Below are positions 21,001 through 27,000 of a stretch of 64,000 nt of DNA, one piece after another. The DNA is taken from the NCBI RefSeq assembly GCF_009931435.1, contig NZ_CP043414.1. One strand, 5' to 3'. A program made the position numbers. This DNA is from Escherichia coli. Lineage in GTDB: Bacteria > Pseudomonadota > Gammaproteobacteria > Enterobacterales > Enterobacteriaceae. Within the stretch, counting starts at the first letter, position 1. Each line of letters begins with the position of its first letter.

Positions 21001-24000
21001 TGGGAAAAACGCCAGGTGCTTAAAGAGGACAACGGCAATATTTCGCAAACCGCAAAATCTCCTGCAGAGCGCAAGAGGGCGCAGCGAGAGAGGGAAAGAA
21101 AGCGGGAACAAAATGGCGATTGTCACGGCGCATCACGAAATGTCACGCACATGTCACGACGAGTCACGACAGATAAAGATACAGATAAAGATACAGATCA
21201 AGAAGATCAAAACACTATGGTCCATGGCGTAAAAAACGCTACGAACCAGGCAGGGGATGTTCAGACCGTCAATCCTGGTCAGCCAGCAGGCACGACACCG
21301 GAAGCCGATTCAGCGTATGCGCTGAAACCCGATTCGGGCGCTGTGCAGCAGGTGATGACCCAAAGGCCGGAACAATCACACCAACTGCAGCAGCCTGAAG
21401 CCGATTCCGCCATTCAGCGGGAAGCCGATCGGGTAGTCCCGGAAAACACCGGGCTGTCTGTGGGACGAGTGGATTATCCGGATGTGTTCGAACAGGTCTG
21501 GCGGGAGTACCCGTTGCGTGCCGGAGCAAACCCGAAGAAATCCGCTTTCAGTGCCTGGAAGGCCAGATTACGCGAGGGGGTGCCACCAGAGGCCATGCTG
21601 GATGGCGTGAGGCGTTACGCAAGATACTTGGCGGCTACCGGGAAAACGGGAACGGAATTTGTTCAGCGAGCGACGACGTTTTTTGGACCGGACCGGAATT
21701 TTGAGAACCCCTGGTTGCTCCCGGTAAGCGGCACGAACAACCAGCGTTGTGTGAATCATATTTCTGAACCGGATAACGAAATTCCGCCGGGCTTCAGGGG
21801 GTAAGTGTTAATTTCTGGTCATGAGGTAATTTTCAGGAGGGCTTGTGGCAAAAGTTTTTACACAAGAAGAGCGGGAAAAAATTAAAGGGCAGGTTGTTGA
21901 ACTCGTACGCCAGAGTGGGCGCGAGACGTTACGACAACTGGAAACTAAAACTGGGGCAACAAGATATCTGATGAGCGTTCTGGCCAGAGAGCTGGTTGCC
22001 AGTGGCGATGTATACAACTCTGGTTACGGGTTATTCCCGTCTGAACAGGAGCGTAAGGACTGGCAAAATGCCCGTAAAAAGCTCTCAAGGGCAAAGCTGA
22101 AGAAACCATCTGCGGTTGATCCGGACCTTATCTGGTCATTACCTGACGGAGAAATACGTCGCTACGATAGTTGTCTAAACATAATCTGTCGCGAGTGCCG
22201 GAAGAGCGAAGTTATGCAGCGCATTATGGCATTTTATCAGGGAAATGTTAGGTATTTTAGACGTTACTAGATTAAAGGGCATTAGTTCAGATATGCATTG
22301 ACATTTTCATGGCACAAGGTAGAGCTAGCGTGGTTGTTCGCTTTGTGCCAAGAGTGGTCATTGATAATATTTTGGTGGGTTACATCTGTCAATGTTTCAG
22401 GTGATATGATATACAAATAGCCAGACTTAGACTGGCATGCTGTTTATTTTTATATTATGGGTGTGCCACATGGATTTAAAACTTATTGAGATATGACATG
22501 GATACTTTTCATAATATTTTGCTTGAGCACATAGACAGCCTTTTAAAAGAGAGACTTGATTTATCTGGTGACGCTGATATCGAAAAAGAAATTAATAACC
22601 TAATTCCCAAAATAGTCATTGTCGTTAAAAAATCTCTTATTGGCTCGGCCAATGCAATGCTTAGAGAACATCGTTCTCTTTGTGATGAATTTGTTGAGAG
22701 AAATATTTCAAGATGGGCAGAGGCTTTTGATTTGCTCGAAACACTTATAGTGATATGCACGGAGTCCGGTGAAGAGTTCAATCGTTCTTATAGACCACAA
22801 GCTGCCTCTGAAGAGGATGTGGTTTTTGATTTAGTCGTTCGGCATCACGCAAGAGCTTGCCACATCGCCAACGAAATTTTGTGTCTCTTAAAGAATGGAT
22901 TTGCAGATGCTGCCCAAGCGAGATGGCGAGCACTTCATGAGGTAGCAGCCACAGCTATGTTTATAGCAAAGCATGGAAAAGAGTGTGCTGAGCGCTTTTA
23001 CTACCATGAAGTGGTTGATTCATATACTGGAATGTTGGAACACAAAAAGTACGAGCACCGGTTAGAAGCAAAAGGTCCAACTATTGAAGAAATAGCTGAG
23101 TGCAAAGTTCAATTTGATCTATTAATAAAAAAATACGGCAAAAAATATGCAGATAATTATGGGTGGGCATCTTATATTTTCCCTAACCATAATAAAGTGG
23201 GGTTTGGAGCTATTGAGAAAGATGTTCAGTTAGAACACATGCGCCCTTATTATAAGTGGGCGAGTCAGAATGTACACACCGGTTCCAAGGCAATGAGAAA
23301 TAGGCTTGGTCTCTGTGAAACTGGTGATGATATATTATTGGTCGGGCAAAGTGATTCAGGAATGGCTGATCCAGCCCATGCTACTGCTATTAGTTTGATG
23401 CAGATTACTGTGACACTTTTATTCTTAAAACCAACCATTGATCATGCCGTCATTTCAAAAATAATACAGGATTATTCTGATGAGATTGGAAATGTATTTC
23501 TTAAAATTGATAAGGGTAATTAAAAATTGGAAAAGTGATAGTATATTCTTGTTTTTTTACTGGTAATTAAATGTTTTTAAAGTTACTAGTTCACACCTAT
23601 CGAACGTCCGGTCTTCGCCCAAAGCGGACTAGAAGGTTAGCTTGCGTCGGATTTGGCGTATTTAAAGAATCGCTGGTGGTTACTGGTTGTTGTGTTCCAT
23701 TTCTACAGAACAAAATCACAGAAACTATACCCAATAGTTGTATCTCATCAATGATGAGAGAGCCTCATATTTATCAGGACTGGTGTACGTCCAATACAGG
23801 AGGTTGTCGTGCTGGTTCTCAAATGTGCGCTGGCTATTGCAGCTGTAATGGCAATTTATTGTCTTGCTGTTGTTCTTATGGATCGCCTTTCTGATTGATT
23901 TTATATTGGCCAGGTGACGGGAGTTAAGTAGAATGGCTGCGGGTGCTTGAGGCTATCTGTCTCAGGCATGAACACCAAAGGCAGATAGAGAAAAGCCCCA

Positions 24001-27000
24001 GTTAACATTACGCGTCCTGCAAGACGCTTAACATTAATCTGAGGCTCAATCTATGAACGGCAAATCTAGGTTAGCCTCTTACGTGCCGAAAGGCAAGGAG
24101 AAGCAGGCTATGAAGCAGCAAAAGGCGATGTTAATCGCCCTGATCGTCATCTGTTTAACCGTCATAGTGACGGCACTGGTAACGAGGAAAGACCTCTGCG
24201 AGGTACGAATCCGAACCGGCCAGACGGAGGTCGCTGTCTTCACAGTCTACGAACCTGAGGAGTAAGAGACTTGGCGAGGGAGAAATCCCTCGCCACCTCT
24301 GATGTGTCAGGCATCCTCAATGCACCCGCACTTAACCCGCTTCGGCGGGTTTATTTTATCTGTAAATATTTTTATAAAAATAATGCCCACACACAGCATA
24401 AAACAAAAAGTATCACAGATAAAAAAGGAGCGTAATGTGCAGATTTGTTGTTTTCCATATTTACTCACTTTAACATAATCAATATTGATATGGTTGTTGT
24501 TTCGGTGGTTTCAAACGAGATGTTATGGTGATCTGGTAAAATTGCATAACATTAAAATTTAATTTATCTAATCGCTTTTAATAATAAGCGTTGTGTTTAT
24601 CCCAATAATCTGTTGTTTGACTTTTATTCCATTAATGTAGGGGCTTTACACTGGAACCAGTTTATTTATACTTTATACGCCAGCCTGAACAACTGGCACC
24701 TGCTGCGCCAGCAGAGACAACCGATGGCGCACGATACCAAATTACACAATTCTGATGATTCTGCCGTCTTTGCCAGCAGGTGCGGACGGCGTTTTCATGC
24801 ATTCAAATCGGACTGGTTCCAGCATCCACCATGCACTGAAGAGCAGGCTGAATGGATAATTCAGTGTTACCGCAGGCGCGGATACGAGGTTAAAAAAGCC
24901 CTTAGCCTCGACTACCGTCACTGGATAATCTCAGTCAGATTGCCTTACTCCGAACGCCCACCGCGTCCGTCCCACACATTCCAGCAACGCATCTGGAGGT
25001 AACGTGCGGGTATTACTTCGACCTGTTCTGGTACCGGAACTCGGGCTGGTGATCGTTAAGCCGGGCCGTGAATCCATGCCGGTATTCCACAATACCCGGT
25101 TACTGGTGGAGCCGGAACCGAAAAGCATGCGTAATCTGCCGTCCGGGGTCGTTCCTGCCGTTGGCCAGCCGCTGGCGGAAGACAAAACATTGCTGCCGTT
25201 TTTTAGTAACGAACGGGTGATTCGTGCTGCTGGCGGCGTTGGCTCATTGTCTGACTGGCTATTACGTCATGTTACATCCTGCCAGTGGCCTAATGGCGAT
25301 TACCATCACACTGAAACAGTCATTCACCGTTATGGTACCGGCGCAATGGTGTTGTGTTGGCACTGCGACAACCAACTGCGTGACCAGACATCGGAATCAC
25401 TGGAGCTGCTTGCTCAACAAAATCTGACAGCATGGGTGATTGACGTCATCCGTCACGCAATAAGCGGTACGCAGGAGCGGGAATTATCTTTGGCTGAATT
25501 ATCCTGGTGGGCGGTCTGCAATCAGGTGGTGGATGCACTACCTGAGGCTGTATCGCGTCGTTCGCTGGGATTACCAGCGGAAAAAATCTGCTCGGTGTAC
25601 CGCGAAAGCGACATCGTACCGGGAGAGCAGACCGCCACCAGCATATTGAAACAACGCACAAAAAATCTTGCACCGTTGCCTTACGCCCACCAGCAACAAA
25701 AACTACCACAGGAAAAGACGGTGGTAAGCATCACCGTTGATCCAGAGTCTCCGGAATCTTTCATGAAGCTGCCTAAACGTCGCCGCTGGGTTAAGGAGAA
25801 ATACACACGTTGGGTTAAGACACAGCCGTGTGCTTGCTGCGGTATGCCAGCCGACGATCCGCATCATCTGATTGGTCACGGGCAGGGCGGAATGGGAACA
25901 AAAGCACATGATCTCTTTGTGTTGCCTTTGTGCAGAAAGCATCACAACGAGCTGCATACGGATACAGTGGCATTTGAAGAGAAGTATGGCTCCCAACTGG
26001 AGCTGATATTTCGTTTTATCGATCGCGCGCTGGCAATTGGCGTACTGGCGTAAGTGGAGAACGAGCATGAACCTTGAAGCCTTACCAAAATATTACTCCC
26101 CAAAATCTCCAAAATTGAGCGATGACGCTCCAGCGACAGGCACCGGTTGTTTAACAATTACGGATGTAATGGCAGCGCAGGGGATGGTGCAGTCGAAAGC
26201 ACCACTTGGGTTGGCCTTATTTCTGGCAAAAGTTGGTGTTCAGGACCCTCAGTTTGCGATTGAAGGCCTGCTAAATTACGCGATGGCACTGGATAACCCG
26301 ACATTGAACAAATTGAGTGAAGAAATCCGGTTACAGATTATTCCTTACCTCGTGAGTTTTGCCTTTGCTGATTACTCCAGGTCTGCGGCAAGTAAGGCTC
26401 GCTGTGAGCATTGTTCAGGTACGGGATTTTATAATGTATTGCGCGAAGTGGTGAAACACTACAGACGCGGGGAATCTGTAATCAAGGAAGAATGGGTGAA
26501 GGAACTATGTCAGCATTGCCATGGTAAGGGCGAAGCCAGCACAGCGTGCAGAGGGTGTAAGGGTAAAGGGATTGTTCTGGATGAAAAAAGAACCCGGTTT
26601 CATGGCGTACCGGTATATAAGATTTGTGGGCGTTGTAATGGAAACCGGTTTAGTCGTTTACCGACCACGCTGGCACGACGTCATGTCCAGAAGCTGGTAC
26701 CAGACCTGACCGATTATCAGTGGTATAAGGGGTATGCGGACGTCATTGGTAAACTGGTAACAAAGTGCTGGCAGGAAGAAGCATACGCGGAAGCGCAATT
26801 GAGGAAGGTGACGAGATAAATGATTTTTGCTGAAGATGGCGACATGATGTTTGCATTTTTCAAAAAATATGGATAAAATTTTTTCAACGATGGGCTTTGT
26901 ATACCCGACGTTAAGAAAAAGTAGAAAACCCGCTGATGAGCGGGTTTTGTGCTTTAAATGGGGCAATGGTAATGTTGAATCTCATCCCGGGACTCATGTC

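Follow-up and report, generated by a model that had tools for sequence, protein, structure and literature searches.

Here we describe a 29-codon open reading frame (ORF) located upstream of the toxin gene hokD in an Escherichia coli prophage, within a stretch of 64,000 nucleotides of contig NZ_CP043414.1 (RefSeq assembly GCF_009931435.1) that we refer to as the window. Comparison of related loci indicates that this ORF is a real protein-coding gene, conserved under purifying selection, and that its product, itself uncharacterised, belongs to the well-known class of small hydrophobic proteins of prophages. Taken as a whole, we think it rather probable that the gene is a prophage 'moron' encoding a membrane peptide that acts through helix contact within the membrane, is not controlled by an antisense RNA and, in the window, is expressed by read-through. 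The ORF and its ribosome-binding sequence are positioned as follows.

23809..23898, plus strand: 29-codon ORF with a GTG start and a TGA stop (23896-23898), product MLVLKCALAIAAVMAIYCLAVVLMDRLSD in the ORF listing.
23798-23803, plus strand: Shine–Dalgarno (SD) sequence AGGAGG, with a 5-nt spacer to the GTG at 23809.

The sequence at the start of the ORF reads acAGGAGGttgtcGTGctggtt, and both this and the ORF listing confirm the arrangement of AGGAGG, 5 nt, GTG and 29 codons proposed in an earlier, sequence-only reading of the window. That reading had also placed the ORF about 200 bp from hok and had described its product as a single membrane helix. The end of the ORF lies 43 nt from the start of the hok mRNA and 212 nt from the hokD ATG, and the helix is borne out as a prediction: the peptide is strongly hydrophobic (grand average of hydropathy (GRAVY) 1.81; best 19-residue Kyte–Doolittle window 2.7), with one predicted transmembrane helix and an acidic C-terminal tail. 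Because the ORF listing contains 46 ORFs of at least 20 amino acids within the 2.5 kb around the locus, the length of the ORF is in itself unremarkable; it is the canonical SD together with the comparative evidence that raises it above chance. A terminator-like hairpin inside the ORF (23833-23852) was no more than expected by chance and was discarded.

Homologous loci were collected by DNA and tblastn searches, which retrieved 16 E. coli chromosomal loci, two Shigella plasmids and two phages, and by a peptide-pattern search, which retrieved a further 80 prophage loci from IMG/VR. The ORF is intact in 95 of the first 97 homologous instances and in 14 of the 16 DNA-selected E. coli loci, a sample without bias towards open frames. 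Both exceptions among the 16 involve IS1, one being a deletion that adjoins an IS1 copy and the other an IS1 insertion. The insertion lies within the ORF and is flanked by a 9-bp target duplication, whereas the deletion, an independent event, removes the promoter and the first ten codons, with the IS1 copy ∼350 bp upstream (the two IS1-linked loci are L104, 1561-1624, and L013, 1141-1605, in our numbering of loci).

The pattern of substitution is that of a translated frame. Among 26 distinct DNA versions of the 29 codons, variable sites number 8/6/19 at codon positions 1/2/3, and the ratio of non-synonymous to synonymous differences (pN/pS) in the ORF frame, 0.28, is the lowest of all six frames (the remaining sense frames give 0.71 and 0.79, the antisense frames 0.41-1.0). 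Diverged pairs have pS values of 0.37-0.60 against pN values of 0.06-0.16, and the synonymous excess is significant in three of them (Fisher p = 2e-5, 1e-4 and 9e-3). Most copies begin with GTG, those of two lineages with ATG; TAA replaces TGA as the stop codon in one copy, and the sole indel in the family is an in-frame deletion of 3 nt. When the most diverged relatives are aligned four ways, the GGAG core of the SD does not vary, and a GGAG-type SD (AGGAGG, AGGAGA or GGGAGG) occurs at the same spacing in 22 of 22 intact copies checked. Frame, start, stop and SD are thus kept together with purifying selection at the protein level, as in a small coding gene. The sequence-only reading had held that a conservation pattern incompatible with this frame would speak against it; of the frames compared, this is the one that the pattern fits best.

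Purifying selection maintains frame, SD, start and stop in lineages with unrelated flanking sequences: upstream of about -60 three lineages cannot be aligned, yet the ORF remains 82-92% identical. This bears directly on the possibility that the ORF is not a gene but a fortuitous frame, conserved through the recent ancestry of a mosaic prophage segment or through a function at the DNA level. The family is young and narrow, being found in Escherichia and Shigella only; the NCBI Prokaryotic Genome Annotation Pipeline (PGAP) mostly omits the ORF; and an adjoining non-coding region of ∼140 nt is likewise conserved in most loci. However, the six-frame comparison singles out the ORF frame, the synonymous excess is significant in pairs with pS of up to 0.6, start, stop and SD survive substitutions with a single indel of 3 nt, and the flanks have become too different to align where the ORF has not. 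We therefore regard a non-coding origin of this conservation as very improbable.

A second, Cys-rich ORF of 107 amino acids (23571-23894) overlaps the 29-codon ORF in another frame and had been judged spurious in the sequence-only reading, a judgement borne out by its variable length and its pN/pS. It is present in this sequence variant only, the same frame spans anything from 23 to 107 amino acids in relatives with no coding signal, and pN/pS is 0.7-0.8 in its two overlapping frames. We rejected it as a coding sequence.

Transcription of the ORF appears to be served, in most of the family, by a promoter of its own.

23743..23771, plus strand: position of the family sigma-70 promoter, with -35 TCTCAT at 23743-23748 and -10 CATATT at 23766-23771.

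At the aligned position, 49 of 52 unique relatives have the form TTGAA(T/G)-17-CATATT, and transcription from this promoter would start near 23778, giving a leader of probably ∼30 nt. The promoter-like site is the left part of a conserved core of ∼165 nt, which continues with a near-invariant CATATTTATCAG, a short leader containing GTGTACGTC, the SD and the ORF. Both this promoter (in those 49 relatives, not in the window) and the SD are conserved, and the ORF is autonomous from its neighbours, which differ between loci. In the window, three to four clustered substitutions destroy the -35 (TTGAAT to TCTCAT) and at the same time generate a palindrome at 23743-23759. Since the -35 hexamer is lost, the promoter is probably weakened here, and expression in the window would probably come about by read-through from the upstream phage operon. 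The palindrome itself, TCTCATCA-A-TGATGAGA, is an inverted repeat with perfect 8-bp arms, unique to this variant, and ∼30 genomes are at least 99% identical across the region that bears it. A terminator scan found none between the upstream gene and the ORF and none between the ORF and hok, and no terminator belonging to the ORF was found in a scan of a hok-less locus either; with none between the ORF and hok, transcription of the ORF would continue into the hok locus. The leader was also read for a LexA box, which was rejected because the CTG...CAG spacings there are 13-14 nt rather than 10.

The peptide has the size and shape of a type I toxin (fewer than 60 amino acids, hydrophobic, one predicted transmembrane helix), and the sequence-only reading had raised the possibility of a second type I toxin beside hokD, with a cognate small RNA (sRNA) to be sought on the antisense strand. 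On this account the peptide would depolarise the inner membrane, and a cis-antisense RNA initiated in the interval that separates the ORF from the hok promoter would block its translation. The antisense strand offers one candidate start.

23898..23927, minus strand: antisense promoter-like site TTAACT-18-TAAAAT, the only one found and probably not functional.

Besides this site, the toxin account can draw on the size of the peptide, its GRAVY of 1.81 and its charged tail, which resemble those of type I toxins of 19-35 amino acids, on a prophage location beside a bona fide type I toxin gene, and on the minimum free energy (MFE) fold of the mRNA, in which the SD pairs with CCUUUCUG at the 3' end of the ORF. 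Against it, the antisense site occurs in just 16 of the 52 unique relatives and is missing from copies without hok and from those of Shigella, in which the ORF nevertheless stays conserved under selection. The scan found no antisense terminator, and complementarity of neighbouring RNAs to the ORF mRNA did not rise above shuffled controls. The MFE fold is not better than shuffles (z = -0.71) and the consensus fold (-15.5 kcal/mol) has a covariation score of -0.84 with compensatory changes in 2 of 26 pairs, and sequestration of the SD by the 3' end of the ORF, although seen in the MFE fold, is neither significant nor backed by covariation. Synonymous sites vary freely, with pS of up to 0.6, which argues against a constrained, fully overlapping RNA. 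For the Shigella flexneri strain M90T, whose virulence plasmid carries a copy of the ORF, the table of differential RNA sequencing (dRNA-seq) results lists zero transcription start sites (TSSs) from 90727 to 91317 on both strands, so none over the ORF (PMC7132871 Table S3). Finally, the peptide matched no toxin family and nothing in PADLOC. Nothing in these tests, all of them indirect for the E. coli copy, supports an antisense RNA in E. coli, and the proposal of a second type I toxin is left unsupported; we consider it unlikely. The other suggestion of the sequence-only reading, that of a small membrane protein or regulator, is still to be preferred.

The peptide was also compared with known short toxins. 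TisB, ZorO, DinQ, ShoB and IbsC (19-29 amino acids) share with the 29-residue peptide a similar length, a hydrophobic helix, a charged end and a mobile or prophage location, and short type I toxins have GRAVY values in the same range. However, the peptide has no sequence similarity to them, no cognate sRNA or antisense RNA was found for it in our tests, and where those toxins have a long structured 5' untranslated region the ORF would have a leader of about 30 nt and an exposed consensus SD.

The ORF is followed at once by a complete hok locus.

23906-23934, plus strand: hok promoter TTGGCC-17-TAGAAT, its -35 beginning 8 nt past the ORF stop.
23941..24355, plus strand: complete hokD cassette.
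23941-24115, plus strand: hok mRNA leader with the sok target region (Rfam RF01794, 110 bits, E = 2.5e-25).
24053-24265, plus strand: mok extension, in frame.
24110-24265, plus strand: hokD coding sequence (PGAP annotation; Pfam HOK_GEF, PF01848, 78.6 bits).
23938-23945: hok 5' element GCGGGTGC, complementary to the 3' element GCACCCGC at 24322-24329 (read from the sequence).
24334-24351, plus strand: hok terminator.

Of the 52 unique relatives, 47 have TTGGCG-17-TAGAAT as the hok promoter; the window variant has TTGGCC-17-TAGAAT. In the window and four relatives, RF01794, named for the sok antitoxin, matches the plus strand, which is the sense strand of the hok leader; the orientation of this model should not be read as that of the antisense RNA. 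HokD and the 29-residue peptide are both small membrane peptides of lambdoid prophages, encoded side by side on the same strand and co-inherited in ∼88% of carriers. They are nevertheless different things: the peptide has no HOK_GEF match (HokD, as control, scores 78.6 bits), BLASTP finds no alignment between the two, the ORF exists without hok, and it has no mok/sok architecture, none of the mok, sok or 5'-3' complementarity elements lying within it, as these begin at ∼23938.

Surveys of complete genomes quantify this association. The core is present in 1,891 of 5,426 complete E. coli genomes (∼35%) and is joined to the hok leader in 1,665 of the 1,891 carriers (∼88%); other carriers include hok-less loci in which a DUF1971/TehB gene on the opposite strand stands in place of hok. 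Leaders of hok occur in 5,425 of the 5,426 genomes, and most hok loci are without the ORF. Around one quarter of the sampled matches are hok loci that keep just the last ∼23-30 nt of the ORF. E. coli K-12 retains the hokD coding part alone and lacks the ORF altogether: it matches from ∼24096 onwards only, and so has hokD without the promoter, mok start, sok region and 29-codon ORF.

These data speak to a reading in which the ORF is an accessory of hokD, its promoter and translation modulating hok by read-through or promoter occlusion while the peptide itself is of minor importance. Such a role would be in keeping with the missing terminator between the ORF and the hok promoter, with the fixed distance at which the ORF is fused to the hok leader in 1,665 of ∼1,891 carriers, and with the final ∼23-30 nt of the ORF staying with hok where the rest has been replaced. 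However, a purely transcriptional role leaves purifying selection at the amino-acid level unexplained, the ORF persists without hok and beside decayed hok, and most hok loci work without the ORF, given hok leaders in virtually every genome and the ORF in ∼35%. We consider the accessory role improbable. The ORF is usually the left end of a complete hokD locus and is also found without hok; we regard it as historically the left part of the full hokD cassette and functionally separable from it. A related idea, in which the peptide is a functional membrane toxin or modulator that acts with Hok, so that the ancestral hokD cassette would have been a two-peptide module, is one we put forward tentatively and regard as unlikely, though it carries consequences to which we return below.

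We favour instead the reading of the ORF as a moron. It lies between phage modules and has variable neighbours, as expected of an autonomous cargo gene, and at least eight unrelated genes stand upstream of it across loci, among them DUF5677, DUF4145, an MFS transporter, FRG, DUF2326, QueH and DUF551. The positions conserved in the peptide are L2-C6, L8, I10, V13, I16-Y17-C18, L23 and D29. We propose that the peptide would insert in the inner membrane with K5 facing the cytoplasm and the acidic tail, DRLSD, outside, and that it would act there either by perturbing the membrane or, more likely, through helix-helix contact with a membrane protein of host or phage. As a prophage moron, it would do so without control by a cognate antisense RNA.

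The peptide can also be compared with the KdpF, AcrZ, MgtS and CydX class of small inner-membrane proteins, which modulate larger membrane proteins and share with it a length of fewer than 50 amino acids, a single helix, a conserved SD and purifying selection. KdpF, with 29 amino acids and a GRAVY of 1.89, has a hydropathy like that of the 29-residue peptide. However, those proteins are chromosomal, are encoded within the operon of their partner or close to it, and are kept across genera, whereas the ORF is borne by prophages and plasmids, in Escherichia and Shigella only, and, because its flanks vary, has no identifiable partner gene.

Several observations weigh against this interpretation. 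A promoter scan of the window detected no promoter for the ORF; the -10 CATATT is kept there, but TCTCAT replaces the TTGAAT or TTGAAG of the relatives at the -35. In M90T, likewise, no TSS is listed at the predicted promoter of the ORF, the nearest on the same strand being 321 nt upstream. The 80 IMG/VR loci are biased towards intact ORFs because they were retrieved by a peptide pattern. The 3' third of the ORF is highly conserved as DNA and is kept in hok loci where the remainder of the ORF is gone, so part of the conservation could serve the hok promoter. PGAP leaves the site of the ORF blank in nearly all genomes sampled, and the membrane mechanism and topology are ones that we only infer.

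The sequence-only reading had called the peptide a candidate new one, but sequence databases already contain it. The window peptide is identical to GCZ25347.1, and variants are deposited as WP_000960667.1 (a PGAP call at the homologous position in strain PM22), ACT39199.1 and ACT43394.1 (REL606 and BL21) and UniRef A0A0M1UIT1 (the Shigella form); the REL606 copy lies at NC_012967.1 complement(1619975..1620064). All of these are automatic calls, named 'hypothetical', 'uncharacterised' or 'membrane protein', and the ORF is unannotated in the RefSeq record of the present genome. What stands of the claim to novelty is thus that the ORF is unannotated here and unstudied; being already in the databases, it is not a new kind of thing. 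Together with CP037924_00134 from S. flexneri, GCZ25347.1, WP_000960667.1, ACT39199.1 and A0A0M1UIT1 belong to the same protein family, which corresponds to no Pfam, NCBIfam or PHROG family. The query of the protein search was a 40-amino-acid read-through variant heading an alignment. Searches of Pfam (E ≤ 10), NCBIfam and PADLOC gave no match for the peptide, and PHROGs returned only phrog_19319 at a non-significant E = 0.74. A literature search found the peptide string in no paper of the library searched, and the papers on hokD and on small proteins were irrelevant to it. In four loci (L004, L005, L007 and L008) the RefSeq locus tags skip one number exactly between the upstream gene and hokD (for example, ECB_RS08105 then ECB_RS08095), which suggests that a feature, possibly this ORF, was once annotated there and was dropped at re-annotation.

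The genomic setting is the early-right/nin region of a lambdoid, Qin-like E. coli prophage, where the annotated plus-strand neighbours are DUF977, DUF5677, hokD, a hypothetical protein, DUF968, RusA and antiterminator Q. A test segment of 801 nt matches E. coli O20:H12 NZ_CP062855.1 at 100% identity, and one of 316 nt likewise matches avian pathogenic E. coli (APEC) O78. Across loci the ORF always lies between replication genes and either the DUF968/RusA/Q module or DUF1367/DUF1364 genes. It is carried by the sequenced temperate phages Tritos, Evi, mEp460_ev081 and HannyBb, by 188 stretches in IMG/VR and by 139 plasmids in PLSDB, of which 124 are the Shigella plasmid pINV. Among GTDB species representatives it was found in E. 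albertii alone, apart from two short and evidently mis-binned contigs of metagenome-assembled genomes, and the GTDB-wide scan revealed no relatives outside Escherichia.

To the left of the core, sequences take at least three unrelated forms, which we term types A, B and C, plus a separate form in E. albertii. The window has type A.

23603..23742, no strand assigned: 'type A' upstream block, ∼140 nt of conserved non-coding sequence that accompanies the ORF in most loci.

The block has no conserved RNA structure (-8.8 kcal/mol, covariation -0.16), and a divergent promoter-like site, GTGATT-16-TATAGT, is found at it in 29 of the 52 unique relatives. We considered whether it might encode a divergent sRNA antitoxin and rejected this: it lacks conserved structure, its complementarity to the ORF mRNA is no better than that of shuffles, and it is absent in types B, C and E. 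albertii. In the window and six related loci, an Rfam scan matched only the hok/sok model. At the start of the block lies an imperfect hairpin, GTCCGGT-N10-AGCGGAC (23606-23629; GTCCGCT...AGCGGAC in relatives), which marks precisely where the conserved block starts on its left side in dozens of loci whose upstream genes are unrelated, and is followed by no T-run on either strand; it could be a mosaic-boundary or recombination sequence.

In type C the core lies downstream of queH, and in E. albertii a gene of 343 amino acids stops 70 nt before the ORF. In type B the core follows another tiny hydrophobic ORF behind a DUF551 gene. This second ORF, M(T/S)WPEAFTTVGIAMAVALVVYSICRWG, encodes 27 amino acids, has a GGAGG SD and lies ∼160 nt upstream of the 29-codon ORF, spanning -245 to -162 from its start (∼1614-1697 in L081; also in L035, L061, L063 and L089). 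Its ATG overlaps the stop codon of the DUF551 gene in some loci. In some genomes it is deposited as 'bacteriophage protein', and it clusters with DUF551 proteins of 121 amino acids.

An intact ortholog is carried by Shigella virulence plasmids (124 pINV records), with an ATG start, an AGGAGG SD and the peptide MLVLKGTLAIAAVMTIYCLIVVLMERFSD. In pWR501 it occupies NC_002698.1 220153-220242 (L100, 3043-3132; also L101), ∼290 nt upstream of the start codon of icsP (sopA), and downstream of it only a decayed fragment of the hok promoter and leader remains. On pWR100 of S. flexneri M90T, Prokka calls the ORF as CP037924_00134, complement(90908..90997). The dRNA-seq table for this strain assigns TSSs 90709 and 90726 to icsP and, to a 'novel transcript', a TSS at 91318, on the strand of the ORF and icsP and 321 nt upstream of the ORF (PMC7132871 Table S3). 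With that start and none between, the Shigella copy may be transcribed from 91318. The papers on icsP regulation that we searched make no mention of an ORF there.

These findings mean that about one-third of complete E. coli genomes contain a gene for a small membrane peptide that is under selection yet mostly omitted by standard annotation; its absence from K-12 explains why it was overlooked. The hokD locus of the K-12 reference is itself incomplete. In Shigella, the much-studied regulatory region upstream of icsP contains an unrecognised coding sequence. If the ancestral hokD cassette were indeed a two-peptide module, its first gene would have been overlooked because K-12 lost it, and an active small protein would survive upstream of icsP on the Shigella virulence plasmid. 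Otherwise an ordinary kind of object, the ORF adds a candidate to the small membrane proteins encoded by prophages.

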